Below, piece after piece: positions 29,066-52,319 of a stretch of 64,000 nucleotides of DNA (position 1 is its first letter; every line of letters begins with the position of its first letter). Under the pieces are notes generated by a model. The model made no database searches, was not told the DNA's origin, and worked only from the letters and a program-made list of their open reading frames with translations. This DNA is from Meiothermus sp. (lineage in GTDB: Bacteria; Deinococcota; Deinococci; Deinococcales; Thermaceae): positions 3,172,594 to 3,236,593 of the forward strand of contig NZ_BPIM01000001.1 in the NCBI RefSeq assembly GCF_026004115.1, in the 5' to 3' direction. The position numbers were made by a program, and so were the translations under genes.

Positions 29066-29210
29066 ACCGCCCCATGATAAGGCCGATGGGGCCGAAGGTA
29101 GCAAATATGGCTTTGGTGCCTGATTTTAAGGATGCTGTTTACGGGTCGCAAGTCTCAGGTCAAAGGCCGCCTTTTCGGGGCGTAGGGCTTGCCGAAATTT
29201 TGTCCTGGTG

Positions 29211-29246
29211 TTCTGGAACAAGTTCTGGAACAAGTTCTGGAACAAG
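29211..29246. repeat. Perfect 3 x 12 bp tandem repeat (TTCTGGAACAAG) upstream of gatA
   Basis: Read directly from the sequence. Across unit junctions the sequence reads GTTC-TG-GAAC (the leading G comes from the preceding unit), an imperfect palindrome. Confidence 0.85.
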
Positions 29247-29286
29247 TATCAGGATAACGGGCCTGGGCTATGCCCAATACCTCCAA

Positions 29287-31904: not shown

Positions 31905-34900
31905 ATGTTCGGTCTGCCGGAACTCAACTACCATCAGAGCAAAGCCTTGCGGCTCCTGCGGTTGCTGGAGCTCCTGCAACAAAAGCCCTGGAAGCCGGCC
32001 GAGCTGCGACAGGAGCTGGGCCTGGGCGAGCGAGCCATTTTCGACTACCTGAACGAGGTAGAAACCCTGGCCGAGCGCCTGGGGTTGCGCTTTGTGCACG
32101 ACACCCTGCGCAGCACCTACCACATCGAGGTGGTGGAGCGCCTGAGCCTGACCGAGACGGTGGTGGCTTTTGCTACCATCCGGATGCTGGCCCACCACGC
32201 ACCGGGAACCAACAAGACCTACCAGGAAGCCCTGCGCAAGCTGGCCAAGCACCTGCCCGAGCCGCTCAAAACCCTAGCTCTAAAAAGCACCAATGCCTTG
32301 CAGCTTCGTCCTCCCAGCCTGAACGGGGCCAACCTCGAGACCCTGACCCAGGGCTGGCTGGAGCGGCGGGTGGTGGCTTTCGAGTACCGCATCCCGCAGG
32401 GTGGGGTCTTTGGGGTGGAGCTCGAGACCTATTTCATCGAGGTTTCGCGGGCCAACATGGCCGTTTATGTCATTGGGAAAGACCGCTTGTATGGCCGCAA
32501 CATCCATTACCTGGACAACCTTAGAACCTACAAACTTGAGCGCATCCAGCGGCCCCGCTTGCTGGAGGCCTCCTATAGCATTCCCGACGATTTCGACCCA
32601 GGCCTGTACCTCTCGACCGCCTGGGGCATTGTGGGCGGCGCAAACCCGCAAAAGGTATTGCTTCGCTTCACGCCAGAAGCCAGCGAACGCATCCGTGAAG
32701 GGGGCTATCCCAATCTTTCAATCCTTGAGCAGCTCGAGGGTGGCGACACTCTCGTTGAAATTACCGTTGGCACCGATCATATTGGATTCCCCCTCGAGCT
32801 GCTTCCTTGGATACAAAGCTGGGGGCCCCGGGTAGAAGTACTAAAGCCCACCAGTCTGCGGCAGAAGTGGCTGGCCGAGGCCCGCCAGGTGCTCGAACGG
32901 TACGACCCCCAGCGGGTAACGGGCCCCAAAACCTACTGGGCCCACACCCACAAAGACCCCACCCGCTGGCAAACCCTGCAGGAACATGCCGCCCAGGTAG
33001 CCCGCCTGGCCGCCGAAAAAGCCCGCCCCTTTGGCGATTCGGAGAAGGCCGACCTAGCGGGAAAGCTCCACGACTTGGGCAAGTATGGCGACCTCTTCCA
33101 GCGCCGCCTCGAGGGCAAGGAAAAAGGCCTCGACCACTGGTCGGCGGGGGCTCATGTGGCCTTGTTCGAGTACCGCGCCCCCGAGCTGGCTTTAGCCATT
33201 CAGGGCCATCACATCGGGCTCCAGAGCGGGGCCAAAGAAAGCCTCAAGGCGATGCGGCTACGCGAGGATGGCCAGGGCTACCCGCCCGAGCTGCGCCTGA
33301 GTGAGACCCGCCTGGAGGTGCTTCAAGAGCGCTTGCAATCCGACGGCCTCGAGCTGCCCCCGCCCAGCCAGGCCCAGATAGCGCTGCCCCAAAGCGCCGC
33401 GGCCATGCTCGAGACCCGGATGCTCTTCTCGGCCCTGGTCGACGCCGACTTTCTCGACACCGAACGGCACATGCAGGGCGAGGTGCGGCCCAGCCCTCCC
33501 CCATTGCAAGCAGCGCTGGCCTTAGAGAAGCTCGAGGCCCGCCTGCAGGCACTCGCAAACCAGGAAGGTCTGCCCCAGCCCATCCGCGCACTTCGTCGGC
33601 AGGTCTCCGAAGCCTGTGCAGCGGCAGCGCAAGCACCGGCCCGACTCTTTACCCTCACCGCCCCCACCGGCAGCGGCAAAACCCTGTCCATGCTTCGCTT
33701 TGCCCTACAGCGCGCCGCGCAAGACCCGCGCATAAGGCGCATCGTGGTGGTGCTGCCCTACCTTTCTATCCTCGACCAAACCGTGCACATCTACCGCGAG
33801 CTATTCGCCGACTTCGGGCCCCACTACATCCTGGAAGACCACAGCCTGGCCTACCGACCGCTGCGCAAGGAGTTTTCCGATGAGCAAGACATCCTGGAAC
33901 GGGAGCGCCGCCTCTTGAGCGAAAACTGGGAGGCCCCCATCATCCTGACCACCCACGTGCAACTCCTGGAGAGCCTGCACGCGAGCCGCCCCGGCGCCTG
34001 CCGCAAGCTGCACAACCTGGCCGGGAGCGTGCTGCTGTTCGACGAGGTACAAACCCTGCCCACCCACCTGGCCGTGCCCACCCTGAAGACCCTTGCGCAC
34101 CTGGCCAGCGACAAGTACAGCTCGGTGGTGGTCTTTGCCACCGCTACCCAGCCGGCCTTCGATACCCTGCACGACAAAATCCAGGAAAACGAACCGCAGG
34201 GCTGGCAGCCGCAAGAAATTGTACCGAACCCTGAAGCGCTCTTTGGCCAAAGCCAGCGAGTAGCGGTGGAGTGGTGGCTCAAAAACCCCACCCCCAACCC
34301 GGCCCTGGCGACCCTACTGGCCGCGGATGAACAGGCCCTCGCGGTGCTCAACCTCAAGCGGCAGGCCCAGGCCCTCTTTCAGCAGGCCCAGGAGCGGGGC
34401 TTGGAGGGGCTTTATCACCTATCCACCGCGCTGTGTCCGGCCCACCGGAAGGCGGTACTGGGGCAGATCAAAGCCCGTCTGGATCAACGAGAACCTTGCC
34501 GCTTGATCGCTACCCAGGTGGTGGAGGCCGGGGTGGAGCTGGACTTTCCCATAGGCTACCGGGCTTTGGGGCCTTTGGAGGCCATCGCCCAGACCGCCGG
34601 GCGGGTCAATCGGCACGGCCTGCGCAGGGAAGGCCGTCTGGTGGTCTTTTTGCCCGAGGACGAGGGCTACCCCGACCGGGCCTACGCCCAGGCCGCCCAG
34701 CTCACCCGGGCCTTGCAGGCCGAGGGGGGCCTCGAGCTGACCCCCGCCGCCTTCCGCCGCTATTACCAAAGCCTCTATGGGCTGCAAAAGGTGAGCGACC
34801 CCGAGGTCGAACAACTCATCAAAACCCAAAACTACGCCGAACTCGCCCGCCGCTACCGCATTATCGAGTCTCCGGCAGTGAACGTGGTGGTGCCCTACAA

Positions 34901-35159
34901 CGAGGAGGCCCTGGCCCTCATGCAGGAAGCCCGTGAGCGGGGCATCGCCGCCGACTGGATTCACCGGGCGCGGCCCTACACGGTGCCCTTCTTTTTGCCC
35001 CACGGGGGGCCGCCGGCCTTCCTCGAGACGGTCTTTCTGCGCTACGGTCGCCAAAAAAGCGAGGTTCCCGACTGGTTTTTATGCCCCGACCCGGCCTGCT
35101 ACCACCCTTCGCTGGGCTTCACCCCTGCCGAGGGCGGGCAGGCAGGTCTGGTTATTTGA
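31905..35159 (+). CDS. cas3: Cas3 (HD nuclease plus SF2 helicase, type I-C) fused to an N-terminal HTH-WYL-WCX transcription-factor-like module
   Basis: Residues 1 to about 335 have an HTH (SKALRLLRLLELLQQKPWKPAELRQELGLGERAIFDYL), a WYL-type core (VVAFEYR..VYVIGKD..LRTYKLERI) and a C-terminal extension (RVEVLKPTSLRQKWLAEARQVLERY). From about residue 344 the sequence is Cas3: HD motif KLHDLGK, helicase motif I APTGSGKT and motif II LLFDEVQ. Confidence 0.9.
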   Translation: MFGLPELNYHQSKALRLLRLLELLQQKPWKPAELRQELGLGERAIFDYLNEVETLAERLGLRFVHDTLRSTYHIEVVERLSLTETVVAFATIRMLAHHAPGTNKTYQEALRKLAKHLPEPLKTLALKSTNALQLRPPSLNGANLETLTQGWLERRVVAFEYRIPQGGVFGVELETYFIEVSRANMAVYVIGKDRLYGRNIHYLDNLRTYKLERIQRPRLLEASYSIPDDFDPGLYLSTAWGIVGGANPQKVLLRFTPEASERIREGGYPNLSILEQLEGGDTLVEITVGTDHIGFPLELLPWIQSWGPRVEVLKPTSLRQKWLAEARQVLERYDPQRVTGPKTYWAHTHKDPTRWQTLQEHAAQVARLAAEKARPFGDSEKADLAGKLHDLGKYGDLFQRRLEGKEKGLDHWSAGAHVALFEYRAPELALAIQGHHIGLQSGAKESLKAMRLREDGQGYPPELRLSETRLEVLQERLQSDGLELPPPSQAQIALPQSAAAMLETRMLFSALVDADFLDTERHMQGEVRPSPPPLQAALALEKLEARLQALANQEGLPQPIRALRRQVSEACAAAAQAPARLFTLTAPTGSGKTLSMLRFALQRAAQDPRIRRIVVVLPYLSILDQTVHIYRELFADFGPHYILEDHSLAYRPLRKEFSDEQDILERERRLLSENWEAPIILTTHVQLLESLHASRPGACRKLHNLAGSVLLFDEVQTLPTHLAVPTLKTLAHLASDKYSSVVVFATATQPAFDTLHDKIQENEPQGWQPQEIVPNPEALFGQSQRVAVEWWLKNPTPNPALATLLAADEQALAVLNLKRQAQALFQQAQERGLEGLYHLSTALCPAHRKAVLGQIKARLDQREPCRLIATQVVEAGVELDFPIGYRALGPLEAIAQTAGRVNRHGLRREGRLVVFLPEDEGYPDRAYAQAAQLTRALQAEGGLELTPAAFRRYYQSLYGLQKVSDPEVEQLIKTQNYAELARRYRIIESPAVNVVVPYNEEALALMQEARERGIAADWIHRARPYTVPFFLPHGGPPAFLETVFLRYGRQKSEVPDWFLCPDPACYHPSLGFTPAEGGQAGLVI

Positions 35160-35207
35160 ACACCGGGGTGCAGGAGCAAAGGCTATTTTTTTCCCAAAGG
35201 AGGTTCT

Positions 35208-35954
35208 ATGCGAAGTTTTGTGCTCGAGGTTTGGGGGGAGCTGGCTTGTTTTACAAGGCCCGAGTTCAAGGTGGAGCGCTTCAGCTACCCCCTCATCACC
35301 CCCAGCGCAGCCCGGGGCATTTTCGACGCCATCTACCTGGACTTTGACCCCCAGAGCCAAAAGTCCCTCATGTACTGGCAGGTGGAGCGCATCGAGGTGC
35401 TCAGGCCGATACGCTACATCAGCCTGATGCGCAACGAGGTCAAGGAAAAGGCCAGCCCACGCAACATCCAGGCCTGGATGAAAGACCCCAGCCGCCTCGA
35501 GCCCCTCTATGCCGACGCCACCAGTAACGAAACCGGCCAGGACACCAAAGGCCGCACCCAGCGCCAGACCATGGCCCTCAAGGACGTGCGCTACCGCCTG
35601 AGCGCCCACGCGGTGCTCTACCGGGAAGACCCCGCCCTGCGCCAGAAAATTGAGCACAGCTTTGAGCGGCGGGCCCGTGCCGGGCAGTGCATCTACCAAC
35701 CCTACCTGGGCTGCCGCGAGTTTAGCGGCTACTTCCGGCTGGTCGAGCCCGGCGAGGAAGCCCCGCCTGTGGACTACCACGAAAAGATCGGCTGGATGCT
35801 CTACGACGTCTTCGACCTCTCGCGACCGGGGGCCCCGCTGCGTACCGACAAAGGGGAAAAGCCCCGCATCAGCCTGTTCGAGGCCGAGGTGGTGGCGGGG
35901 GTGCTGCTGGTGCCCCCCTATGAAAGCGAGCGGGTCAAGAAGGGGGTGGGTTAA
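35208..35954 (+). CDS. cas5: Cas5c (Cas5d), type I-C pre-crRNA endonuclease subunit
   Basis: [43 protein letters not shown] is the typical Cas5d N-terminus. Confidence 0.9.
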
Positions 35955-37798
35955 TGCTCGCGCAGTTGGTGGAGTACGCCCGGCAAAAAGGCCTGGGCAC
36001 CGAACCCGGCTTTACCACCAAGGAGATTCGCTGGCTGGTGGGGGTGAGTCCGGCTGGAGAGTTCACCGAGCTGATCGACCTGAACCAAACCAAACCTGCC
36101 CCCGACCTCTCCCAGCCCGACATGATGAGCCTGCCCGGCTACTTGCGGGCGCAGGGTCACACCGTCGAGCAGGCCGCCCACTTCCTGGCCGACACCTGTG
36201 CGGTGGTGTTTGGGCTGGCCGAGCGGGACGCCGCAGGGAATATCAAAAAGCCCGAGGAACATGCCAAAAACCTCCTGAAGCACGCTGCCTTCCGGCTGCT
36301 CATCCAGTTGGCGGCCAGAAACGTACCGCTCCTCGAGCCCATCGCCAAGGCGCTCTCCGACCCCCAGCAGGTGCAGGCTTTCTTGCAGAAGCTGGAGGCC
36401 CAAGCCCAGAAAAGGGGGCCAGAAAGGCTCAAATCCACCGACAAAATCTCTTTTTTCGTGAACGGCCGGTGCGTGCTGGACTGCCCCGACTGGCACGACT
36501 GGTGGCGGCAGTTTAGGGCCCAGGCCTTCCCCAAGTCGGGCGAAGAGGGCCAGATGCCCTCGTTCGCCAGCGGCGAGCTGGTCACTCCGGCTTCCACCCA
36601 CCTCAAGGTCACCCGGCTGGGCGGGAGCGCCTTTGGCCACGCTTTGGTCACCTACGACAAGGAGGCCTTCGAGTCCTATGGCCTCTCCCAAGGGGAGAAC
36701 GCGGCGGTAGAGGAGGAGGCCGCTACCGCCTACCGGGCCGGGCTGGACGCGCTGTTGGAGAAAGCCCAAACCCTGGGCGAGATGAAGGTGGTGGTCTGGT
36801 ACGACCGCGAGATTCCCGAGGAAGACGACTTCTTCCGCGACCTCTTCGCCCCCAGCAGCGGCGAGGCCGAGGAGCTACAGGCCCTCGAGCGCGCCCACAA
36901 GGTGCTACAAGCCCTCAAGACCGGCCAGGCCCCGCCCAGCCTGCGCCAGGCCCGCTTTTTCGCCACCGCCATGAGCCCAGCCTCGGGCCGGGTGATGGTG
37001 CGCGACTGGCAAATCGGCAGGCTGGAAGACTTCGTGGAGGCCGTAACAACCTGGTTTGAGCAACTGGCCATCGTGCGCAAGGGCGGCGACCGCCCGGCCA
37101 GCCTGCCGGGGTTGAACCGGCTCTTCCTGAGCCTGCAGCGGCCCAAATCCCCCGACCAAAAGCTGGACGACTACCTCAAGCCCGTCAAAACCTTGCAACT
37201 CCCCCTCTGGCGAGCCGCCCTGAACCCCAGCCTGCCCATCCCTTACGCCGCCATCGCCAAAATTATGGAGACCCACACCGCCGAGGTGATGACCGGGGCC
37301 TTTACCGAGGCCCTGAACACCCAGAAACCCGACGCCGCCGCCCTGGGGCGCATCTACGCCCGCATGGGGCTTTTGAAGGCCTACCACATCCGCAAAGGAG
37401 GGAAGATGAGTACCGCCCTAGACCCCCACCACCCCAGCCCGGCCTACCACTGTGGCCGCTTGATGTGCCTCCTGGCCCAGATCCAGGAGGCCGCCAGCGA
37501 GTCCGAGATCAACGCCGGGGTGGTGCAGCGCTACTACGGCGCTGCCAGCAGCACGCCGGCCCTGGTGCTGGGCCGCCTCACGCGGCTTTCGCAGCACCAC
37601 CTGAGCAAAATGGCCAAGGACGCCCCCGGCCTGGCCTACTGGTTCAACACCCAACTGGCCCAGGTCTGGAGCGCCCTGGGGCCCAGCCTCCCGCGCACCC
37701 TGAGCCTGGAAGAGCAAAGCCTTTTTGCCCTGGGCTACTACCATCAACTGGCCCAAAGCCGCAAGGGCAAGCAGGAGGGCGAGACTCAATCCGCATAA
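35954..37798 (+). CDS. cas8c: Cas8c (Csd1), type I-C large subunit
   Basis: Assigned by position between cas5c and cas7c, its 614 aa size and a Csd1-like N-terminus. The ATG overlaps the cas5 stop (TAATG). Confidence 0.85.
37406..37798 (+). CDS. cas11: Predicted internally translated small subunit Cas11c (130 aa, in frame within the cas8c 3' end)
   Basis: An in-frame ATG at 37406 is preceded by a strong AAAGGAGGG Shine-Dalgarno. Type I-C systems are known to make Cas11 by internal initiation in cas8c. Confidence 0.5.
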
Positions 37799-37828
37799 AT
37801 CCAAGCCAAACCCTGAAAGGAGATGTTT

Positions 37829-38818
37829 ATGTCCCAGCCCATCCAGAACCGCTACGAGTTTTTGCTCTTCTTCGACGTGCAAGACGGCAACCCCAACGGC
37901 GACCCCGACTCGGGCAACGCCCCCCGCGTAGACCCCGAGGACGGCCACGGCCTGGTGAGCGACGTGGCCCTCAAGCGGCGCATCCGCAACTACGCCCAGG
38001 CCGCCGGAGCCCCCATCTTTGTGCAGCACGGCACCAACCTCAACCGCTCCATCTTCGAGGCCCACGAGAAAACCGAGGGTGGGTTCACCGCAACCAAAAC
38101 CAAGGACAAGGTAGAAGCGGCCCGCCGCTGGATGTGCGGGCAGTTCTTCGACGTTCGCACCTTTGGGGCGGTGATGAGCACCGGGGCCAACGCCGGGCAG
38201 GTGCGGGGGCCGGTGCAGATCACTTTTGCCCGCAGCCTCGACCCCATCTTTCCCGCCGAGTTCAGCATCACCCGCGGCGCGGTGGCCGAGGACGTCAAGA
38301 ACGCCAAAACCCTGGAAGACTACCTGCGCTGGGAGAAAGAACAACCCGAGGACAGGCTGCGCACCATGGGCCGCAAGAGCCAGGTGGCCTACGGCTTATA
38401 CCTGGCCAAGGGCTTCATCAGCGCCCACCTAGCCCAGGGCACCGGCTTCAGCCAGGCCGATCTTAAGCTTTTGGTGGAAGCCCTTTTGAACATGTACGAC
38501 CACGACCGCAGCGCCTCCAAAGGCATGATGGCCACCCGCCGGCTTTACCTTTTCCAGCACGTGGGCAACGGCGACCCCCACAACGCCGAGCAAAACAAGC
38601 GCCAGGCCATGCTGGGCTGCGCCCCTGCCCACCGCCTGCTCGATCTGGGCCAGGTGGTCTCGGTGGGGCGACTCGACGAAAGCAAACCCCCCCGCCGCTT
38701 CGCCGACTACGAGGTAAAAGCCGACCCCCAGAAGCTACCCAAAGGGGTGCGGATGTTGGAACTGGACGCCTGGGACGAGGCCCGCTTTGACCGCTGGATG
38801 GGAGGGCAGGATGCCTAG
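37829..38818 (+). CDS. cas7: Cas7c (Csd2), type I-C backbone subunit
   Basis: [49 protein letters not shown] is the Csd2 hallmark. The start is at MSQPIQ, after AGGAG. Confidence 0.9.
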
Positions 38819-40103
38819 AACCATCCCCTTTTCGCCCCCCGAACTCAAGACACCTGCGTTGGAGACCTGGACGCTCAGGCTCAAAACCATCACGCCAATG
38901 TTCGGCGGCAGCGCTACCCCGCGCGAGGTAGACCCGGAAAACCCTGTTCGGGCGGCCAGTGTGCGCGGGCACCTGCGCTTTTGGTGGCGGGCTGTGGCGG
39001 GGGGACGGTATGCCAGTGCGAAAGAGTTGTTCGAGGCGGAGGAGGAAATTTGGGGCAGTGATGCCATCCCAGGAAAAGTTTCCATAAAGGTATTGGAGGC
39101 GAGGGCATCAGAGCCCAAGCCTTGCTGTACTTATGAGCATCCGCGAAGAGATGGGGGAACTGAGCTAAAAACCTACCCTTATTTTGGGGAGTACCCCGGA
39201 TATGCTCTTTTCCCGTTTCAGGGCAAGGCCCGGAGAGACAAACAAAGTGGCGTAATAACTATTACTGAGCAGCCATCTAAGTGTCTCGAAGAAGTAAGCT
39301 TTACCCTATGCCTTTCTTTTCCTAACTACATCAAGCCCCAAGTAGAACCGGCCGTCGCCTTTTGGCTAAAGCTTGGCGGAATAGGGGCGCGTACAAGGAG
39401 AGGCTGCGGAAGCTTAGAGATTGTTGAAGATTCGCTTCCTCAAAACACGAAGCTCGAATCTTTATTGGGTCGCAAAGCAAATAGTCTTCTCACAACGGTT
39501 CCAATCGTTTGTTTTGTGGGCGAAGAGAAAGAATCGCCCATCCAAGCATGGAAAGAGGCAGTTGAGGTTTACAAGGAGTTCCGGCAAGGAAAAGATTACG
39601 CCAGAGACCCAGGCTCTAATCCCAAATCTGCAAAACTCGGACGTTCAAGGTATCCAGAACCCGATACTATTCGCGAAATGTTTTCGCAAGAGAGTTGGCG
39701 GCACGGAGTAAAACATCCAGTTAGAGGCTTTCCTCGAGCCGATCTAGGCCTCCCGATAGTTTTTCACTTTCAGGAAGAAGGCCCTAAAGATGAAAACTTC
39801 TACCTCGAGTCCAACTATTCACGCGGTTCACGGTTTGCCTCGCCGGTCATTACGAAAGCGATGAAAAAGAATAATGGCTATGCTCCGGCTATTATTCTGC
39901 TCAACGCACCTCATGTGTGGGAGGCTGGAAACTTTACGTTGAGGTTGCGTTCGGATGTGCATGTAATAAAAGAGAACTTTGTTAATCTTGATCGGCACAG
40001 TCGAGAGCACATACCACCGCTGAGAATGTTTGGCTCCAAACCGATTCGCGAAGCATTGTGGGATTTCATAAAGTCCAAGGGCTACCAGGAGGTGCGCCTA
40101 TGA
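38811..40103 (+). CDS. cmr1: Cmr1 (type III-B RAMP)
   Basis: ITPMFGGSA...[16 protein letters not shown] is the Cmr1 signature. The ATG overlaps the cas7 stop by 8 nt. Confidence 0.8.
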
Positions 40104-41584
40104 GCCACCTGCTCTCCATCTCCCTGGGCCCAGTGCAAGACTTCATTGCCGCCGCGCGCCGCACCACCGACCTGTACGCAGGTTCGCAGATTTTGCAGGA
40201 ACTGAGCAAGCACGCCGCGCAGCACTTGGCTTCGCAGGGGGCTACGCTCATCTTTCCAGCCAACCAGAACGCCGACGGGGCCAACAAGATTCTGGCCGAG
40301 GTAAAGGACGACCCTAAGCAGCTTGCCGCGAAGACCAAAAAAGCCGTTCAGGACAGGCTATTGAGTCTCTGGGACGAGACCAAAGGCAAACTTCCCGCCG
40401 AGCAACAGAACCTGATTGACCAAGCAAGGGCCCAAGAGCAGCTTGGGTGTTTTCTCGAGTTCTACGCCGCCTGGGTGCCGCTGCCCAACAAGGAGGCCTA
40501 CAGGGAGGCCCGGCTTCAGGTGGAGCGCCTCTTGGCCGGGCGCAAGGCTTTGCGGGACTTCGCCCCCACCCAGCAGAGCGACGACGGCGTGCCCAAGTCC
40601 CCCCTCGACCCCTCCTGGGCGGCGGTGATCGATCCCCGACAGTGGGGGGATGTCAACATCCGCCTGGCCGTTGGCTCCTACCGCCCACTGCGCATCAAGC
40701 CCACCGAGCACCTCGACGCCATCTCGCTCCTCAAGCGCTGTTACGGGGTGCTGAACTCGGACAAAGTGGTGGACACCCGCACCATGGCCCGGCGCTCCTG
40801 GAGGCCGGAAGCAAAGCCCGACGAGCGCTACGGCGAGGAAGACGACCATATCCCAGAGCCCCAGCCCTACCTGGCCATCCTGGTGGCCGACGGCGACCGC
40901 ATGGGCGAGCTGATCGCGCGGCAGGACGACCCCAATGCCCACCGTGGGCTATCAAAAACCCTGGACGACTTCGCCAAAGAAGCCCGCAAAATTGTGCCCA
41001 AGCACAGGGGCTTTATGGTCTATTCGGGCGGGGACGATGTGCTGGCCCTCCTGCCAGTGAATCGGGCCATCGCCTGCGCCAAAGACCTCTCGGAGGAGTT
41101 TCGCCACCGGGTCAAGGGCACCCTTTCGGCAGGAATCGCCATTGTGCACTACCGCGAGCCGCTTTCCATTTCCCTGCAACATGCGCGATATGCGGAGAAA
41201 GCCGCTAAGAACGGTGGACGGAATGCCCTGGCGGTGGCCCTGCACACCCGTGGTGGCTCGCCGGTCACGGTGGTGCAGCCCTGGAACGAGCTGTCCTGGG
41301 ACGAGCTGCTCGAGGCCTACCAAAACCGCCAGATTACCCGTGGCCTGGCCCATGAACTGCGCGACCTGGTGCAGGAGTGGCAGGACGACATGCGGGCCGA
41401 TTACCTCCATAAGGAAGCCCAGCGGGTTCTGTCTCGCAAAGAGGCCCGCAATCTAAAAATCCCCGCACCCGCCAGCGACACCCCCACCTACCGCAAAGCC
41501 CTGCTGCGCTTTGTGGATCAGCTCATCATCGCCCGCTTTTTGAGTGGCCTTCAGGAGGAAGAGCATGCCGGAAAGAGTGCTTGA
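40100..41584 (+). CDS. cas10: Cas10/Cmr2, short form without an HD domain, cyclase GGDD motif intact
   Basis: It starts directly at SLGPVQDFIAAARRTTDLYAGSQIL. It has VADGDRMG and YSGGDDVLALLP and is 494 aa. There is an ATGA overlap with cmr1. Confidence 0.9.
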   Translation: MSHLLSISLGPVQDFIAAARRTTDLYAGSQILQELSKHAAQHLASQGATLIFPANQNADGANKILAEVKDDPKQLAAKTKKAVQDRLLSLWDETKGKLPAEQQNLIDQARAQEQLGCFLEFYAAWVPLPNKEAYREARLQVERLLAGRKALRDFAPTQQSDDGVPKSPLDPSWAAVIDPRQWGDVNIRLAVGSYRPLRIKPTEHLDAISLLKRCYGVLNSDKVVDTRTMARRSWRPEAKPDERYGEEDDHIPEPQPYLAILVADGDRMGELIARQDDPNAHRGLSKTLDDFAKEARKIVPKHRGFMVYSGGDDVLALLPVNRAIACAKDLSEEFRHRVKGTLSAGIAIVHYREPLSISLQHARYAEKAAKNGGRNALAVALHTRGGSPVTVVQPWNELSWDELLEAYQNRQITRGLAHELRDLVQEWQDDMRADYLHKEAQRVLSRKEARNLKIPAPASDTPTYRKALLRFVDQLIIARFLSGLQEEEHAGKSA

Positions 41585-42698: not shown

Positions 42699-42700
42699 AC

Positions 42701-43489
42701 ATGCACGCAAAGATGATTTTTTGGCAGGCCCTTACGCCGGTGCACCCCGGCACCGGGCAGGACAGCAGCAGCGTGATTGACCTTCCCGTAGCCCGCGAAG
42801 CGGCCACGGGTTTTCCGGTGATACCGGCCAGCAGCCTTAAGGGGGTGCTGCGCGATGGGCGCGATGATGAGCAAAGCAATAGACTTTTCGGCTCCTTAGA
42901 AAATGCAGCCGAACTGACCCTGACCGATGCCCGCCTCTTGTTGCTGCCGGTGCGCTCGTATGCGGGCACCTTTGCTTTCCTGACCTGCCCGCTGGTGCTC
43001 GAGCGGCTCAAACGCGACCAGAAGGCCTTGGGGCTTCCTGAGCTGAAAGCTCCGATACCGAACCCGGGACAGACCGAAGCTCTCGTACCCAAGAACACTC
43101 AAATTGTGCATGCTAACCAGGTAATCCTCGAGGACATAGACCTGAGTGCCACTGTCGGAGGCGCAGAAGCGCTGGCGCAGGAACTGGGGCAACTGGTCTT
43201 TGGCGCGGAGTCGAGCTACTTTGTGGGGCGCTTTGCATTGGTATCCAACGAAGTGTTCGATTACTTTTGCGAGATGGGCCTCGAGGTCATCGCCCGGGTA
43301 CGCCTGGAAAACGAGAGCAAAACCGTAGCCAACGGCGCTTTGTGGTACGAGGAAGCCATCCCTGCCGAGACGGTGTTCTCGAGCTTCGCCATCGGCAATG
43401 GGTTCGAGGAACTGAACCGGCCCTACATCCAGATAGGCGGCCAGGCCAGTGTGGGCCGGGGGCTGTTGCGGCGGTTGGGGGGTGAGTAG
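42701..43489 (+). CDS. cmr4: Cmr4 (RNA-cleaving backbone RAMP)
   Basis: ALTPVHPGTGQDSSSVIDLPVAREAATGFPVIPASSLKGVLRD is the Cmr4 pattern. Confidence 0.9.
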   Translation: MHAKMIFWQALTPVHPGTGQDSSSVIDLPVAREAATGFPVIPASSLKGVLRDGRDDEQSNRLFGSLENAAELTLTDARLLLLPVRSYAGTFAFLTCPLVLERLKRDQKALGLPELKAPIPNPGQTEALVPKNTQIVHANQVILEDIDLSATVGGAEALAQELGQLVFGAESSYFVGRFALVSNEVFDYFCEMGLEVIARVRLENESKTVANGALWYEEAIPAETVFSSFAIGNGFEELNRPYIQIGGQASVGRGLLRRLGGE

Positions 43490-43491
43490 CC

Positions 43492-43870
43492 ATGTCCCAA
43501 ACACGCAGCCAAAAGGACATGCAGCAGGCGCTGGAGCTGGTGAGCAGCCTCGAGCGGGCCGACCCCGAGGTCAAGCGCATCTACGGCGGCCTCTGCCACA
43601 GCTTCCCGGTGATGGTCCTGCAGAGCGGGCTGTGCCAGGCCGTGGCCTTCAGCGCTGATAAAGCCAGCGGCGACGGTAAGCGGGCCCAGGCGCACCAGCA
43701 TTTGCTTGAGCACCTCGGCGAGATGCTGGGCGTAAGGGGCAAGCTGCTGGAGGCGTTGCAGTCGGCACCCACGCCCCTGTACATGCACCACACCCGGCGG
43801 GTGCTGGAAGCGTGGGTGTACTTCAAGCGCTTTGCGGTAAGCGTACTCGAGGTGCAAGCGGGGGAAGACC

Positions 43871-43881
<11 letters not shown>
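43492..43881 (+). CDS. cmr5: Cmr5 (type III-B small subunit)
   Basis: 129 aa helical protein with the motif IYGGLCHSFPVMVLQSGLCQAVAF, positioned between cmr4 and cmr6. Confidence 0.85.
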
Positions 43882-44841
<960 letters not shown>

Positions 44842-44845
<4 letters not shown>

Positions 44846-45900
44846 GCACTGTCGTCCTCACCACCGTCGGCACCAGCCTGCTCTTCAACGCCCGCCGCGA
44901 GGGCCTGGTAGAAGACCACCAGATTCTGGCTTACCTGAAGCAAGACCCCAAAAAAGCCAGCGCCGAGACCAACTCGCTTTCGCGCATTTTGCAAAAAGGC
45001 GATGAGGTGGTGCTGCTGCACAGCGACACCTTCGAGGGCGCTAACGCCGCAAACTTGCTGAAGCTTTTCTACGAGGAGCAGGGGGTGCCTTGTGGTCGGG
45101 TGCGCATACCCGGCCTGGCCTACGAGGCCCAGGGCTTTGTGGACTTTGGCCTAAAGAACTTTGTGCGCACCCTGGCCGGCGAGATTCGTAAGGCTGCCAA
45201 GGGGCAGAAAGACGTCATCATCAACGCCACCGGGGGCTTCAAGGCCGAGATTTCCTATGCCACCGTGCTGGGGCTGGTGTTCAAGGTTCCGGTCTGCTAT
45301 ATTCACGAGCAGTTCAGGGAAATTGCCATCCTGCCGCCCACGCCCATCGGTTGGGATAGTAGCTTGTTTGTTTTGTATGGCGACTTTTTCGACTGGCTGA
45401 GCGAAGGCGAGGGGGGCGTGCGCCCCAAATCGGAGGTGCAACCCAGGGCAGCTCTGTTGCCCGAAGAAGCACAGGTTTTGCTGGAGGAGTTCGAGCTCGA
45501 CGGAAAGCCTTACGTGGGGCTATCCCCTTTGGGCGAGGCCTACTTCGAGGCCTTTCGGGGTGAACTCGAGCAGGCCCAGACCATCCCCATCTACCTCGCG
45601 CCCAAGGCCAGGCGCACCTGGGAGGGCCTCGAGCCCGCCACCAAAGAGCGCTACCGCAAGCTGCTGGAGCGCCTGCGCCTGCCCAACCGCGCTACCAGCA
45701 GCGAACTCAAAAGCGGCGGAGGCGACGCTCTGGGGTTTCCCAAAGGGCACACGGACGAGCGGGTTTTTTACGCCGAGAAGGACGGTGCGCTGTATGTGTT
45801 CGCCCTCACCCACCACGGCCCGGAGTACGAGCGGATGTGCCAGGAGGGCTTCTACTGGCGTGATTATTCTCCGCAGGATTTCACCCTGCTCGACGAGTGA
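44842..45900 (+). CDS. CARF domain protein with a C-terminal RelE/ParE-like domain (cOA-responsive effector candidate)
   Basis: N-terminal CARF motifs LTTVGTSLL and INATGGFKAE. By eye, the C-terminal roughly 95 aa (IYLAPKARRTWEGLEPATKERYRKLLERL..ERVFYAEKDGALYVFALTHHGPEYERM) align position by position with E. coli RelE. There is an ATGA overlap with cmr6. Confidence 0.7.
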
Positions 45901-45927
45901 AGCCCCCAAAGCCTGTCCGGAGGCTTT

Positions 45928-46584
45928 ATGGACGAGACGGACGACCTATTCCCCCCAATAGACCCGCCCAGCCCCGCCGAGCGGGAGCCCCTACCCCTGA
46001 GCGCCCTGGCCCAGTACACCTACTGCCCCCGCCGGGCCGCGCTGATACTGCTGGAGGGCGAGTGGGAGGACAACGAGTACACCCTGCGCGGAACCCGCGC
46101 CCACGAGAATGTGGACATTCCCGAAGGGCTCTTGCGCGAGGGGGTCTGGGTCGAGCGGGCCTTGCCCATCTGGTCGGAGCGGCTGGGGCTTTCAGGCCGG
46201 GCCGATGTGGTGGAGTTTGTGAACGGGGTGCCCTACCCGGTGGAGTACAAGGTGGGCCAGCGGTGGCCCCGCGAACTGGCCCGCAAAGCTGCCGAGGTAC
46301 AGCTCTGCGCTCAGGCCTTGTGTCTGGAGGAGATGTTCGGCCAGAGCGTACCCGCCGGGGCTTTGTTTAGCAAGGCCAGCCAGCGCCGCCGGGAAGTCCT
46401 GTTTACCCCGGAGTTGCGGGCCGCTACCCTGGCCACCCTCAGCGCCCTGCGCAAGCTTTTGCGTCAGGAACGCTTGCCCCCGCCCGCAGCAGACGAACGC
46501 TGCCGCCACTGCTCCCTTCATGCGGTGTGCATGCCCGAGGTGCCCCAGGCGTTGGTGCATTTCCTCAGCCACAACCAGCCATGA
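45928..46584 (+). CDS. cas4: Cas4 (RecB-like nuclease with Fe-S cluster)
   Basis: YTYCPRR at the N-terminal Cys and C-terminal CRHCSLHAVC. Confidence 0.9.
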   Translation: MDETDDLFPPIDPPSPAEREPLPLSALAQYTYCPRRAALILLEGEWEDNEYTLRGTRAHENVDIPEGLLREGVWVERALPIWSERLGLSGRADVVEFVNGVPYPVEYKVGQRWPRELARKAAEVQLCAQALCLEEMFGQSVPAGALFSKASQRRREVLFTPELRAATLATLSALRKLLRQERLPPPAADERCRHCSLHAVCMPEVPQALVHFLSHNQP

Positions 46585-47600
46585 CTACCGAGCTGCTCAA
46601 TACCCTCTACATTCAGACCCAAGGCGTATACCTGCGCCTCGAGAGCGACACCCTGCGCATCCAGCATGAGGACGTAACCCTGCGCCATGTCCCGCTGCAC
46701 CACCTGGGGGGCTTGGCGCTTTTTGGCAACGTGCTGGTTTCGCCCTTTTTGCTCCACCGCTGCGCCGAGGAGGGCCTCGAGGTCGCCTGGTTTAGCGAGT
46801 CGGGCCGCTTTCAGGGGCGGCTGGCAGGGCCGGTCTCGGGGAATGTGCTGCTGCGGCGGGCTCAGTACCGGGCCCTGGATAACCCTTCGACCTGCTTGTA
46901 CCTGGCCGCGCGCTTTGTGGAGGGCAAGCTTAAGAACGCTCGCCTGGTGCTACAGCGAGCCGTGCGCGAGCGGGGCGAAACCGAGGCTCTGAATCAAGCA
47001 CTTTTTGAACACGAAGCGGCCCTGCGCCAGCTTCCCCAAGCCCGAACGGTGGACGAGGTGCGGGGCCTCGAGGGACAGGCGGCCAGCGCCTATTTCGCGG
47101 CTTTTGGCGATCTGTTGCTCTCGGGCGAGTTCCGCTTTGAAGGGCGCAACAAACGCCCCCCGCGCGACCCCGTAAATGCCCTGCTGGGCTTTGTGTATGC
47201 CCTGCTCACCACCCAGTGCACCGCCGCCCTGGAAGGGGTAGGGCTCGACCCCCAGGTGGGCTTTCTGCATGCCCTGCGACCCGGTCGCAACGCCTTGGCC
47301 CTGGACTTAATCGAGGAGTTTAGAGCCTGGTGGGCCGACCGGCTGGTGCTTTCGATGATCAACCGCAAGCAGCTCTCTCCCGAGCACTTCGAGGAGCGCC
47401 CCGGCGGTGCGGTTTTGCTGAGTGAGGAAGGGCGAAAGGCGGTTATCGTGGCCTTTCAGGGCCGCAGGCAGGAAACCCTACAGCACCCTTTGTTCAAAGA
47501 GCCCGTACCCATCGGGTTGCTGCCCCACATCCAGGCCCGCCTGCTGGCCCGCTACCTGCGGGGCGACCTGCCCGAGTACCCCCCGTTTGTAGGAAGGTAG
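46581..47600 (+). CDS. cas1: Cas1 integrase
   Basis: TLYIQTQGVYLRLESDTL...NALLGFVYALL...GFLHALRPGRNALALDLIEEFR. ATGA overlap with cas4. Confidence 0.95.
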   Translation: MTTELLNTLYIQTQGVYLRLESDTLRIQHEDVTLRHVPLHHLGGLALFGNVLVSPFLLHRCAEEGLEVAWFSESGRFQGRLAGPVSGNVLLRRAQYRALDNPSTCLYLAARFVEGKLKNARLVLQRAVRERGETEALNQALFEHEAALRQLPQARTVDEVRGLEGQAASAYFAAFGDLLLSGEFRFEGRNKRPPRDPVNALLGFVYALLTTQCTAALEGVGLDPQVGFLHALRPGRNALALDLIEEFRAWWADRLVLSMINRKQLSPEHFEERPGGAVLLSEEGRKAVIVAFQGRRQETLQHPLFKEPVPIGLLPHIQARLLARYLRGDLPEYPPFVGR

Positions 47601-47602
47601 AT

Positions 47603-47902
47603 ATGGAGCGGCTGGATATTCTGGTTACCTACGATGTCAACGTAACCTCCGCAGACGGCCAGACCCGCTTGGCCCGGGTCGCCAAGGTCTGCAAGAACTT
47701 TGGTCAGCGGGTGCAGATGTCGGTGTTTGAGTGCCGCGTGACGCGGGCTCAGCTCGAGGACATGGAGGCCAAACTACTCAAAATCATCGAGCCCGACAAA
47801 GACAGCCTGCGCATCTACACCCTGCCCGGAGGCCGGGAGAAGTGCTTGCGGGTACACGGCCAGGACAAGTACACCGACTTCGACGACCCCTTGGTGGTCT
47901 AG
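47603..47902 (+). CDS. cas2: Cas2
   Basis: 99 aa with VTYDV...RVAKVCKNFGQRVQMSVFEC. Confidence 0.9.
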   Translation: MERLDILVTYDVNVTSADGQTRLARVAKVCKNFGQRVQMSVFECRVTRAQLEDMEAKLLKIIEPDKDSLRIYTLPGGREKCLRVHGQDKYTDFDDPLVV

Positions 47903-48103
47903 GCCACCCTGGCACTTGCTTTGCGCGAACCCCAAGCAAGTGCCAAAACCCGGGGGGGTTCGCGCAAGCCGAGAAATCGGCTAGGGGACATTGAAAACCT
48001 GTTTTCCCTTCACCTTGCCCCACCCTGCGCCGGAACCCTTTTCAGGGGGGTTCGCGCAAACGGCCTCTTGAGCTTTGTCCAGCACGCACGCTAGAATGAG
48101 GCC
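47903..48103 (+). promoter_or_regulatory. CRISPR leader (201 bp) with a candidate promoter TTGAGC-N18-TAGAAT (48068-48097) and repeated motifs
   Basis: It lies between the cas2 stop and the first repeat. Degenerate repeats are at the far end of the array, so this end is the leader. The -10 element ends 6 nt before repeat 1. Confidence 0.6.
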
Positions 48104-51100
48104 GTTGCACTCGGGCGAAAGCTCGAGTGAGGATTGAAACCCTGATCCGCGATGCGCTGCGCTTCCGCCGAGTCGTTGCACTCGGGCGAAAGCTCGAGTG
48201 AGGATTGAAACCTGGCAGGCCTTGGAGCAATGCTTGGAGTCCCTGGTTGCACTCGGGCGAAAGCTCGAGTGAGGATTGAAACCTGGCCGACCAGCCGCGC
48301 GATCATCCGCTCGGCGTGTTGCACTCGGGCGAAAGCTCGAGTGAGGATTGAAACTGGTAGGTCGAAGGGTATATCTTTACGCGGATGGGTTGCACTCGGG
48401 CGAAAGCTCGAGTGAGGATTGAAACACAGAAGTGCCACAAATAGCGTCCAGGACAACAAGTTGCACTCGGGCGAAAGCTCGAGTGAGGATTGAAACGTGC
48501 CGTGTGCTCAGTAAGCATTTCCTCTAAAGCGTTGCACTCGGGCGAAAGCTCGAGTGAGGATTGAAACACATAAACGTACAACCCACGGCCCACTCGAACC
48601 ACAAGTTGCACTCGGGCGAAAGCTCGAGTGAGGATTGAAACCTCGAGGACGATAGCCCAGAGGGGCTTCGCACCAACGGTTGCACTCGGGCGAAAGCTCG
48701 AGTGAGGATTGAAACAGCTTATCGATGGCCTCCTGGGGGCTGCGCCCGCGGTTGCACTCGGGCGAAAGCTCGAGTGAGGATTGAAACGGCCGTTATCTGT
48801 CGGGCTATGACGACTGGATAGCGTTGCACTCGGGCGAAAGCTCGAGTGAGGATTGAAACACCTGCATCCCTATGTTGAACAAAAATTCTTTAAGTGTTGC
48901 ACTCGGGCGAAAGCTCGAGTGAGGATTGAAACGCAAGCCTCACAGGTGGTATAGCGTGCGTTGTAGCAGTTGCACTCGGGCGAAAGCTCGAGTGAGGATT
49001 GAAACTCGTAGCCCAGGAACAGCCGCCGGTCGTACTCAAGTTGCACTCGGGCGAAAGCTCGAGTGAGGATTGAAACCCGCACCAGCCAATCGTCATCCGA
49101 TACTAGCCGCCAGTTGCACTCGGGCGAAAGCTCGAGTGAGGATTGAAACTTGAACTGAAACAATATTGTTTTCTCTGCCCAAAGTTGCACTCGGGCGAAA
49201 GCTCGAGTGAGGATTGAAACTGCTAACGCGCAGACATTCACGATCTGCGCAAACGTTGCACTCGGGCGAAAGCTCGAGTGAGGATTGAAACAGCGCCGCT
49301 AAGGGAGAATCGGCAGCCATGTTCATGTTGCACTCGGGCGAAAGCTCGAGTGAGGATTGAAACTTCTTTAGGGCGAATCATACCATTAGAATATTTTGTT
49401 GCACTCGGGCGAAAGCTCGAGTGAGGATTGAAACAGAGATGGGCTCCACGGGAATGACTACCTTATTATCGTTGCACTCGGGCGAAAGCTCGAGTGAGGA
49501 TTGAAACCTTCGAGGGGTTCTACAGGTATTACTACCTTGTTATGTTGCACTCGGGCGAAAGCTCGAGTGAGGATTGAAACCCCTGCTGGATGGCGTCGTT
49601 GAGCAACGCCACCACCGGTTGCACTCGGGCGAAAGCTCGAGTGAGGATTGAAACGCGAGAGATGCACTAATGCTCGAGTCATACTCACCGTTGCACTCGG
49701 GCGAAAGCTCGAGTGAGGATTGAAACTCCTCACCGGGGAGGACATCCCCCAGGGCTGGGCGCGTTGCACTCGGGCGAAAGCTCGAGTGAGGATTGAAACT
49801 ATAGCTGTTCCAGCTTCTTCAGTACTTCCAGATCCGTTGCACTCGGGCGAAAGCTCGAGTGAGGATTGAAACGAGTGCGAGGGGCGGCTCATAGAGGTAA
49901 AGGCCGCGTTGCACTCGGGCGAAAGCTCGAGTGAGGATTGAAACTATGCGTTTAGCGTTTAGGCGTTTAGGCGCGTATACGTTGCACTCGGGCGAAAGCT
50001 CGAGTGAGGATTGAAACGCGAGAGATGCACTAATGCTCGAGTCATACTCACCGTTGCACTCGGGCGAAAGCTCGAGTGAGGATTGAAACCATCAGGAATG
50101 AAATAAACTGTATAAACATCATCTGTTGCACTCGGGCGAAAGCTCGAGTGAGGATTGAAACAGGAGAACGCCCTTGTAGAGGCTTTCCTTTTCCTCGTTG
50201 CACTCGGGCGAAAGCTCGAGTGAGGATTGAAACTAGCCATTAGGATTGACAACGATTTGGCTTGGAGGATGTTGCACTCGGGCGAAAGCTCGAGTGAGGA
50301 TTGAAACAGCCAAAAAATATCTTTCGAATTCAATTAACTGTACGTTGCACTCGGGCGAAAGCTCGAGTGAGGATTGAAACGTGCATAAAATGCACAATGT
50401 CTTCAGCCAGAGATAGTTGCACTCGGGCGAAAGCTCGAGTGAGGATTGAAACTTCTAATTTATTTCCAGTAGCAATAAAATGAAGGTTGCACTCGGGCGA
50501 AAGCTCGAGTGAGGATTGAAACTCGACGACGGCGAGAAATCCCGCGGGCCCCATCCCGTTGCACTCGGGCGAAAGCTCGAGTGAGGATTGAAACCCGAAC
50601 GAGAAAAAAGCTGTTGGGAGAAATCTCGCGTTGCACTCGGGCGAAAGCTCGAGTGAGGATTGAAACGCTAAACAACGACACCACATTATTCAGAAGGGCG
50701 TGTTGCACTCGGGCGAAAGCTCGAGTGAGGATTGAAACAGGCATCCCATACAGCCGTACGTCCGTAGGCGACCCGTTGCACTCGGGCGAAAGCTCGAGTG
50801 AGGATTGAAACCGACTCCCGCGACGAGGAGCGGGTGCGCGCCCTCGTTGCACTCGGGCGAAAGCTCGAGTGAGGATTGAAACCCCGAACGCCTCGCTAAA
50901 ATACGGCAGCCCGGCTAGTTGCACTCGGGCGAAAGCTCGAGTGAGGATTGAAACATCGCGGGCAGGTCTGTATCGTACCCCCAGCCCAGTTGCACTCGGG
51001 CGAAAGCTCGAGTGAGGATTGAAACTCGCCGTCGCAACCATCTGGGCTGGGCCTTTGAGTTGCACTCGGGCGAAAGCTCGAGTGAGGATTGAAACGGCGG

Positions 51101-52319
51101 TCAAAGGGCGGGCAGGCGGCAACATCAAGCGTTGCACTCGGGCGAAAGCTCGAGTGAGGATTGAAACGCCAGGCGAGTCAAGATTCTCTGGGAGTCCGTA
51201 GCATGTTGCACTCGGGCGAAAGCTCGAGTGAGGATTGAAACGCACTCCCCACATTCCAGGCCCCAGTAGGCCACGTTGCACTCGGGCGAAAGCTCGAGTG
51301 AGGATTGAAACGTTGCGGGCTTCGCCGTTGCCTGGGGGATCCAACCGTTGCACTCGGGCGAAAGCTCGAGTGAGGATTGAAACGAACAGTTCCGACCTGA
51401 AGTGTAGCAGGTCTTCCTGTTGCACTCGGGCGAAAGCTCGAGTGAGGATTGAAACTTTGACCTGGCTTACCGCTACCTCAATCCTGGCTCGTTGCACTCG
51501 GGCGAAAGCTCGAGTGAGGATTGAAACTCAAAGGCCCCGCGGAACTTGAATGCCCCGTGGGCGTTGCACTCGGGCGAAAGCTCGAGTGAGGATTGAAACC
51601 TTCAAATCGACTAGGAAAACGTAGGAAAACGGAGGGTTGCACTCGGGCGAAAGCTCGAGTGAGGATTGAAACAAGCACCACCAGCGAAGACATCCTGATT
51701 GCCCGTCTTGTTGCACTCGGGCGAAAGCTCGAGTGAGGATTGAAACAGACCACACCCCCGCTGGCGGGGTGCGGTATTCCACGTTGCACTCGGGCGAAAG
51801 CTCGAGTGAGGATTGAAACAATTCAATCTCTATTTGGCTATTTTCCACCGGAAGTTGCACTCGGGCGAAAGCTCGAGTGAGGATTGAAACTTACGCGGAT
51901 GCGGGCAATGTTTTGCCCGTTCCGGCGTTGCACTCGGGCGAAAGCTCGAGTGAGGATTGAAACCGATGGTCGCGAGGGCTTGCGGGCCCGTGTGGAGGTT
52001 GCACTCGGGCGAAAGCTCGAGTGAGGATTGAAACTGGAGCGAGGGCGGCAGCACGTCCTGGGTCGAAGGTTGCACTCGGGCGAAAGCTCGTGTGAGGATT
52101 GAAACCTACGCGCCTTGTTGCTAGGAAGTTTACGCCGTCGTTGCACTCGGGCGAAAGCTCGAGTGAGGATTGAAACATTCCTGAACCTATGGGACAGGCC
52201 CGCCTCGAGTGGTTGCACTCGGGCGAAAGTTCGAGTGAGGATTGAAACAGAAAATCATCCAGAATTTCCTGCACGGCTTTTTGTTGCACTCGGGCGAAAG
52301 CTCGAGTGCCGAACAATAG
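48104..52319 (+). CRISPR. CRISPR array: 59 repeats of 37 bp (GTTGCACTCGGGCGAAAGCTCGAGTGAGGATTGAAAC) and 58 spacers of 33-37 bp
   Basis: Every unit was hand-indexed. Repeat 56 carries A>T at 52091 and repeat 58 carries C>T at 52230. The last repeat (52283-) matches only its first 26 nt. The repeat ends in ATTGAAAC on the same strand as the cas genes. Confidence 0.98.

Follow-up and report, generated by a model that had tools for sequence, protein, structure and literature searches.

A type III-B Cmr module nested within a type I-C CRISPR-Cas operon of Meiothermus, and the possibility that one guide RNA pool serves both complexes

Type III CRISPR-Cas modules with no cas1, cas2 or cas6 of their own are already known to rely on the arrays of type I systems: Vibrio species carry III-B/I-F hybrid loci with Cas6f (PMC6360697), the III-B system of Marinomonas mediterranea uses a type I-F array (Silas et al. 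2017 eLife, as recounted in PMC11229360), and "hybrid" type I/III operons are flagged by CRISPRCasTyper (PMC9755687; PMC11229360). In the III-B/I-F hybrids a Cmr module without adaptation genes lies beside a type I array or depends on one, the two modules are adjacent or unlinked, the 8-nt tag is the normal one, made by Cas6f, and the advantage suggested is a backup when targets escape through the protospacer-adjacent motif (PAM) or the seed. Characterised type III complexes carry guides with an 8-nt 5' tag made by Cas6, and to our knowledge type III use of type I arrays always proceeds through a Cas6 that makes this tag; nucleases other than Cas6 do supply type III effectors in the III-Bv system of Synechocystis, whose guides mature through RNase E, and in III-E Cas7-11, which processes its own. 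Here we analyse a 64,000-nucleotide stretch of the chromosome of Meiothermus sp. (contig NZ_BPIM01000001.1; hereafter the window), in which the genes of a III-B Cmr module and of a CARF-RelE effector lie inside a type I-C operon. This type III module has neither cas1-cas2 nor cas6 of its own and is physically joined to the type I module and its array; unlike in the III-B/I-F hybrids, the Cmr genes stand within the type I operon itself, and the sole linked processing enzyme is Cas5c. We consider it plausible from the sequence, and incline by a little to the view, that the locus is a composite class 1 operon in which a single pool of Cas5c-processed CRISPR RNAs (crRNAs) serves both the I-C complex and the Cmr complex.

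Fourteen plus-strand open reading frames (ORFs) occupy positions 31905-47902, all of them intact, with ATG starts and no internal stops, in the order WYL-cas3, cas5c, cas8c, cas7c, cmr1, cas10, cmr3, cmr4, cmr5, cmr6, the CARF-RelE gene, cas4, cas1c and cas2, followed by a leader and an array (Table 1). Judged by NCBIfam and Pfam profiles against the cut-offs of the models, and for the RelE part of the effector by predicted fold, every gene name and the gene order given in the original prediction, an earlier reading of this DNA, proved correct. The III-B set is complete, with Cmr1, Cas10/Cmr2, Cmr3, Cmr4, Cmr5 and Cmr6 each exceeding its NCBIfam cut-off; Cas10, which is short, has the GGDD cyclase motif at residue 310 and a palm domain (PF22335, E 1.5e-37), and domain searches detected no HD domain in it. 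On the I-C side, Cas3 passes the HD model (TIGR01596, 63 bits against a cut-off of 43.45) and falls marginally under the cut-off of the helicase model (cas3_core, 99.3 against 102.45 bits), and the best Protein Data Bank (PDB) matches of Cas5c are I-C Cas5 chains described as "pre-crRNA processing endonuclease" (8g9t, 3kg4 and 8dex). We assign Cas5c as the I-C processing nuclease, its enzyme activity being predicted.

The operon shares with canonical type I-C loci (Nitratidesulfovibrio vulgaris (D. vulgaris) pDV, Deinococcus aetherius and Thermus thermophilus HB27) the seven I-C genes, predicted Cas5c processing, the Cas4-Cas1c-Cas2 adaptation genes, and a repeat composed of a hairpin and an 11-nt tail ending ATTGAAAC. 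It differs from them in that the contiguous order cas3-cas5-cas8c-cas7-cas4-cas1-cas2 is broken by seven genes (7.1 kb), the Cmr/CARF-RelE block, which stands exactly at the boundary between interference and adaptation genes; in the canonical controls D. vulgaris pDV and D. aetherius, cas4 directly follows cas7c. This exact split had been predicted, as had a single array and the absence of a cas6 gene and of a second adaptation module, and all of these hold within the window, which contains one adaptation module, one array and, among the PADLOC matches listed for ORFs of at least 170 aa outside the operon (to about E <2e-7), no cas6.

Table 1. Features of the nested operon, its leader and its array, with positions in the window; the last column gives the junction with the next gene (aa, amino acids; nt, nucleotides).
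Feature	Coordinates	Strand	Description	Junction with next gene
cas3	31905..35159	+	1084 aa; N-terminal HTH-WYL-WCX extension of ~340 aa, then HD nuclease and helicase	48-nt gap, widest in operon
cas5c	35208..35954	+	248 aa; predicted I-C pre-crRNA endoribonuclease and Cascade subunit; TIGR01876 121.7 bits (cut-off 85)	1-nt overlap
cas8c/csd1	35954..37798	+	614 aa; I-C large subunit; TIGR01863 265.5 bits (cut-off 218.65); PF09709 E 2.5e-100	24-nt gap
cas7c/csd2	37823..38818	+	331 aa; I-C backbone subunit; TIGR02589 316.8 bits (cut-off 182.25)	8-nt overlap
cmr1	38811..40103	+	430 aa; TIGR01894 67.6 bits (cut-off 28.65)	ATGA
cas10/cmr2	40100..41584	+	494 aa; TIGR02577 188.1 bits (cut-off 79.4); Cmr2_N and palm2	20-nt overlap
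cmr3	41565..42698	+	377 aa; TIGR01888 122.8 bits; PF09700 E 2.2e-79	2-nt gap
cmr4	42701..43489	+	262 aa; backbone and slicer subunit; TIGR02580 194.4 bits	2-nt gap
cmr5	43492..43881	+	129 aa; small subunit; TIGR01881; PF09701 E 1.9e-28	11-nt overlap
cmr6	43871..44845	+	324 aa; TIGR01898 118.2 bits	ATGA (44842-44845)
CARF-RelE effector	44842..45900	+	352 aa; PF09651 E 1.4e-31; Cami1 homologue by fold	27-nt gap
cas4	45928..46584	+	TIGR00372 126.9 bits	ATGA
cas1c	46581..47600	+	TIGR03640 475 bits (cut-off 385)	2-nt gap
cas2	47603..47902	+	NCBIfam/Pfam profile match	
leader	47903-48103	+	201 nt; between cas2 and array	
CRISPR array	48104..52319	+	58 full 37-nt repeats GTTGCACTCGGGCGAAAGCTCGAGTGAGGATTGAAAC (48104-52248) and a degenerate 59th (52283-52319)	

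The nested order recurs throughout a lineage. A profile of Cmr1 relatives was run against one genome per GTDB species and the 14 window proteins were mapped on the best 80 loci, 13 of which show the same nested order, all of them in Deinococcota (L001-L006, L028, L034, L035, L037, L039, L047 and L067); the carriers are Meiothermus hypogaeus, M. luteus, M. cerbereus, M. granaticius, Calidithermus roseus, Thermus altitudinis, Deinococcus piscis and several metagenome-assembled genomes (MAGs). Two further nested loci, one on the megaplasmid pMESIL01 of Allomeiothermus silvanus DSM 9946, annotated by the prokaryotic genome annotation pipeline (PGAP), and one in a Meiothermus MAG, bring the total to at least 15 others, so the search for the same gene order in relatives that the original prediction had proposed found it in 15 other Deinococcota loci. 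In all 15, cas7c and cmr1 overlap or are spaced within about 80 nt, and no cas6 was found near the relatives' nested operons, either among ORFs left without an assignment in the 13 genome loci (which took in at most 10 kb of DNA on each side) or near the operon in the PGAP table of pMESIL01. The architecture had been called unusual, and it is so in the sense that we found no description, in the literature searched, of a Cmr module nested in an I-C operon or of Cas5c-dependent type III guides; it is, however, lineage-wide, with one example present in the PGAP-annotated A. silvanus record.

Parts of the operon have been replaced while its layout was kept. Two of the nested loci (L005 and L006) share the Cmr and adaptation lineages of the others and have another I-C interference lineage, in which Cas8c is only 26-28% identical. 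The cmr1 gene occurs in two forms, 36-41% identical to each other, which have been exchanged between otherwise near-identical operons (L001 and L086) with the overlapping junctions kept, and the window's own cmr1 has a foreign base composition (GC 0.51 and GC at third codon positions, GC3, 0.51, against GC 0.60-0.68 and GC3 0.73-0.86 in its neighbours) and retains both of its overlaps. Judged from these alignments, the nested layout is not a one-off insertion and has outlasted module exchange across four genera. The window operon is itself a mosaic, in which cmr1 and the CARF gene are M. hypogaeus-like (96-97%) and cmr4, cmr5 and cas4-cas1-cas2 are A. silvanus-like (94-98%).

Nesting of this Cmr clade in type I operons may be more general. 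In Paenibacillus aceti and in an unclassified MAG, Cmr modules of this clade have I-C-type arrays around them and lack a cas6 within 10 kb, and a second kind of nested type I/III-B operon, this one including cas6, lies on the chromosome of a Chthonomonadaceae MAG (OZ251990.1; L011, 3478-21212). Its order is cas6, an unassigned ORF, cas3, two unassigned ORFs, cas4, cmr1 to cmr6 and further unassigned ORFs, among them a cas1-like match; it closes with an array, and the repeat there ends ATTGAAAC. That the Chthonomonadaceae nested operon encodes cas6 suggests that the processing enzyme normally travels with the operon. One further locus (L010) appears similar to it.

The repeat of the window array points to the enzyme that processes it. 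Its fold is a hairpin with nine base pairs in the stem and GAAA in the loop (-16.2 kcal/mol, z = -4.4), from which an 11-nt 3' tail, AGGAUUGAAAC, extends; a stable hairpin and such a tail ending ATTGAAAC are features of I-C repeats. Nine repeats were compared, from seven nested loci (the window included), from an array beside a related Cmr module (L014) and from Repeat-2 of T. thermophilus HB27: eight of the nine stem pairs show compensatory changes, and the final 12 nt are invariant, forming a tail, GAGGATTGAAAC, that belongs to the Thermaceae I-C repeat type and contains the AUUGAAAC tag. HB27, which is of the same family as the organism studied here, has in Repeat-2 the design of the window repeat, GTTGCAC-hairpin-GTGAGGATTGAAAC, and Repeat-2 serves the I-C system and is cleaved by Cas5c only, by neither Cas6-1 nor Cas6-2 (PMC12102369). 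The HB27 cleavage data, the lack of a linked cas6 and the occurrence of related Cmr modules beside I-C-type arrays together favour Cas5c as the processor of the array and so as the supplier of guides to whatever complex draws on it. An alternative explanation of the 37-nt repeat as an adaptation to Cmr was rejected because the canonical I-C systems of D. aetherius and HB27 use the same design.

Under a shared crRNA pool, a III-B Cmr module, with an HD-less and cyclase-competent cas10, and a Cami1-type gene would have been inserted into an I-C operon, and the resulting system would work as follows. The cas genes would be co-transcribed and partly translationally coupled, the array would be transcribed from its leader promoter, and Cas5c would cut at the 3' base of the hairpin of each repeat to leave the AGGAUUGAAAC handle. 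The crRNAs would load the I-C Cascade for PAM-dependent DNA degradation by Cas3, and the same crRNAs would load Cmr through the AUUGAAAC tag, either after 5'/3' trimming or with three extra 5' bases tolerated. Cmr would sense complementary transcripts, Cas10 would make cyclic oligoadenylate, probably cyclic tetraadenylate (cA4), and this signal would activate the Cami1-like RelE nuclease and shut down translation. Immunity would thus be layered over DNA and RNA, both layers drawing on a single spacer memory that the I-C Cas4-Cas1-Cas2 module acquires.

Several observations weigh against a pool shared in this way or fail to support it. Cas5c is expected to leave 11 nt, as against the 8-nt tag of type III guides; the repeat design is not specific to nested loci, being that of the canonical I-C repeat of D. 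aetherius; and the three imperfect protospacers described below, too few for a PAM or strand bias to be read from them, include none flanked by 5'-TTC, the PAM of type I-C systems. In A. silvanus, whose nested operon (L085, NC_014213.1 183.7-202 kb) has an IS3 element within its ancillary slot and an integrase-core gene of insertion sequence (IS) type directly after cas2, no array was found in the 4.5 kb read downstream of cas2; the identical 37-nt repeat occurs in an array at about 125.4 kb, some 58 kb away from the operon. For HB27, Repeat-1 mini-arrays alone supported type III interference, all other repeat-spacer combinations giving none (PMC12102369); by implication, type III there makes no use of the I-C repeat. 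HB27 differs from the window in having its systems at separate loci; its type III complexes employ a different repeat, with the tag AUUGCGAC, and an orphan Cas6, and no cross-use of arrays was detected there (PMC12102369). The comparison of HB27 with the window made here is one of repeats.

Some of these points fit a credible though less likely alternative, in which Cmr is loaded in trans by Cas6-processed crRNAs that carry AUUGAAAC as an 8-nt tag and originate in I-B-type arrays elsewhere in the genome; the nesting would then be a matter of co-inheritance or co-regulation only, and the adjacent I-C array would serve Cascade alone. It would give Cmr the 8-nt tags established for characterised type III complexes, and candidate sources exist: pMESIL01 of A. 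silvanus has, besides the nested operon, a distinct I-B locus that includes cas6, the repeats of its arrays ending GAGGATTGAAAC, and Cas6 homologues are encoded in C. roseus and M. luteus, both carriers of the nested operon. A distant orphan Cas6 is what the type III systems of HB27 rely on (PMC12102369). Loading in trans does not, however, readily account for the embedding of Cmr in I-C and never in I-B operons in 15 of 15 loci, including those with an exchanged I-C interference module, nor for the lack of a linked cas6 in the nested loci or the related Cmr modules among I-C-type arrays without cas6. The original prediction had named two kinds of contrary evidence, independent promoters and terminators between the modules, and other arrays or cas6 genes elsewhere that serve Cmr; internal promoter-like and terminator-like sites are not enriched, whereas cas6 genes elsewhere do occur in three nested-operon species.

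A stricter version of the shared-pool reading is that, in this Deinococcota lineage, the Cmr complex takes its guides solely from the I-C array, through processing by Cas5c. It would then be the first type III effector with guide maturation by a Cas5-family enzyme, and the locus a single operon with one crRNA pool for a DNA-targeting and an RNA-sensing complex; we advance this version tentatively, at somewhat short of an even chance. If Cmr were fed in this way alone, solitary repeat mimics of phages might disable both complexes simultaneously. Single copies of such I-C-type repeat mimics (a hairpin with a AGGATTGAAA(C/T) tail) occur in Thermaceae phages and viral contigs, namely in the Meiothermus phage MMP7, in MMP17 and in IMG/VR loci L092, L093, L095, L097, L098 and L100-L103. 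The MMP7 copy (L082 1507-1600; MK071653.1 about 29015-29072) is intergenic, preceded by a TAGAAT -10-like box and followed by a hairpin and T-run. These elements look like solitary repeat units and are candidate RNA anti-CRISPRs against Cas5c-processed repeats.

Every junction figure in the original prediction was correct, and the overlapping or near-abutting junctions are consistent with co-transcription of the cas genes. Between positions 31000 and 48300, internal sigma-70-like promoters and intrinsic-terminator-like hairpins are not commoner than in shuffled sequence. Since the array probably has its own promoter, in the conserved leader, a single transcription unit can cover the cas genes only, and these look like one unit, so that the one transcription unit originally proposed stands for the former and not for the latter. 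It is improbable that the I-C and III-B modules are instead transcribed separately, and regulated independently, from internal promoters that the sigma-70 scan missed. A consensus scan is crude, internal promoters within coding sequence are common in long operons, and a weak terminator-like hairpin stands at the end of cas3 (35135-35150), before the widest gap; but neighbouring genes overlap by 4-20 nt at six junctions, both module borders on the Cmr side among them, the counts of promoter-like and terminator-like sites equal those of shuffled controls, and the cas7c/cmr1 overlap is kept in relatives. Very improbable is the proposal that the Cmr/Cami1 block is neutral or decaying mobile cargo that contributes nothing to a working I-C operon, for although cmr1 has a foreign base composition, relatives' blocks show IS insertion and gene loss (as with the A. 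silvanus IS3 element) and the window lacks a csx1-like gene, all seven block genes are intact with ATG starts, overlaps and the GGDD catalytic motif preserved, the block is kept in four genera at 36-97% protein identity, and gene swaps preserve both reading frames and overlapping junctions.

The effector that the Cmr signal would activate is encoded directly after cmr6. Its CARF domain is of the APE2256/CARF7 type (PF09651), and its best sequence matches in the PDB, 8phb and 8phj (E about 1e-15; 8phb 9e-16), cover the CARF and middle parts only; the last 110 residues gave no match to a RelE domain, or to any other, by sequence in Pfam or in phmmer searches of the PDB. An AlphaFold2 model built from 26 homologues (predicted local distance difference test score, pLDDT, 88.6) has as its top Foldseek matches, over the full length, the apo and ribosome-bound structures of Cami1 (8phj and 8phb; E ~1e-17, 7e-18), and its C-terminal domain matches the toxins RelE, YoeB, HigB and YafQ. 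According to the predicted fold, the protein is a Cami1 homologue with a C-terminal RelE-fold nuclease. These matches vindicate the label "CARF-RelE" of the original prediction, with the RelE part borne out by predicted fold and not by sequence. The protein resembles Cami1 (Mogila et al. 2023 Science; PDB 8PHB, 8PHJ) in its CARF7-type domain, middle domain and C-terminal RelE fold and differs in being only about 23% identical in sequence, and activation by cA4 with ribosome-dependent cleavage of mRNA would be predicted for it by analogy. Cami1 is often found with Csx1 in III-B loci (PMC11229360); relatives of the window locus also pair the Cami1 gene with a csx1-like gene, and the window has no such partner. 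Most relatives have a further gene, encoding 373-419 aa, in the slot that separates cmr6 from the Cami1 gene (L001 16110-17231; L085 22951-24024); it is csx1-like, has an R-x4-H HEPN-type motif and bears the PGAP name csx2/TIGR02221. The slot of L005 holds a Card1-type CARF gene, and that of the window is empty, with cmr6 overlapping the Cami1 gene directly.

The only favourably placed promoter-like sequence, TTGAGC-18-TAGAAT (48068-48097), lies in the leader and ends 6 nt upstream of repeat 1; the leader also has three copies of the 13-mer GGGGTTCGCGCAA (47921-47933, minus strand; 47955-47967 and 48047-48059, plus strand), which is absent elsewhere in the 64 kb. Leader, promoter hexamers and 13-mer are kept in eight nested loci, and the motif may be a candidate binding site for integration or regulation. 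Repeat mutations are confined to the far end of the array, which places the leader on the cas2 side. The array holds 58 spacers of 33-37 nt; two are identical (49655-49689 and 50018-50052), and an adjacent pair (49435-49470 and 49508-49543) represents shifted, diverged versions of one target with 25 shared positions. Spacer GC content varies between 0.24 and 0.79, a spread that points to several quite dissimilar sources. When the spacers of the window array and of two relatives' arrays were compared with 50,697 phage records, only three matches were obtained, all imperfect; the protospacer flanks are CCC, AGC and GCT, too few to establish a PAM or strand bias, and only one of the three protospacers is antisense to an annotated phage gene. 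A search for self-targeting gave no spacer match longer than 17 nt elsewhere in the window.

Beyond its nested block, the operon is set apart by its Cas3. The N-terminal extension (31905-32900) is a regulator-like HTH-WYL-WCX module fused to the nuclease-helicase, with a clear WCX match (PF25583, E 1.4e-11) and a marginal WYL match (PF13280, E 2.6e-4, 21.3 bits against a cut-off of 21.8); the canonical Cas3 of D. vulgaris, unlike that of the window, is only about 745 aa long. A WYL protein is encoded as a standalone gene in the I-B loci co-resident in HB27 and A. silvanus, and in many nested relatives a gene for a regulator with TPR and winged-helix domains lies directly upstream of cas3, a gene that is absent from the window.

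The flanking genes examined are housekeeping genes (miaA, gatA, hsp20, lysS, lon, a GTPase of the elongation factor G (EF-G) family and ribonucleotide reductase), and the setting is chromosomal rather than a defence island. Given these neighbours, the defence-like PADLOC matches in other ORFs of the window most likely reflect generic ATPase and Lon similarity, and they were set aside. No Rfam family matched the window at gathering thresholds. Outside the CRISPR locus there are two tandem repeats, one of 3.1 copies of a 36-nt unit with 96% matches adjoining gatA (27463-27576) and one of 3.2 copies of the 12-nt unit GTTCTGGAACAA between gatA and miaA (29210-29247).

The anatomy of this locus is real, conserved and easy to test, and the functional step proposed here is a hypothesis with a credible rival. 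Its recurrence in relatives makes guide sharing testable, for example in culturable thermophiles such as Meiothermus and Thermus, and CRISPR gene deletions have already been made in Thermus (PMC12102369). If Cmr does not use crRNAs of the I-C array, the locus would be a tidy case of packed defence genes. If it does, the operon would define a new way of making type III guides, would reveal by what means a type III complex fits or shortens an 11-nt handle, and would be a compact natural example of immunity layered over DNA and RNA on the basis of a single spacer memory.

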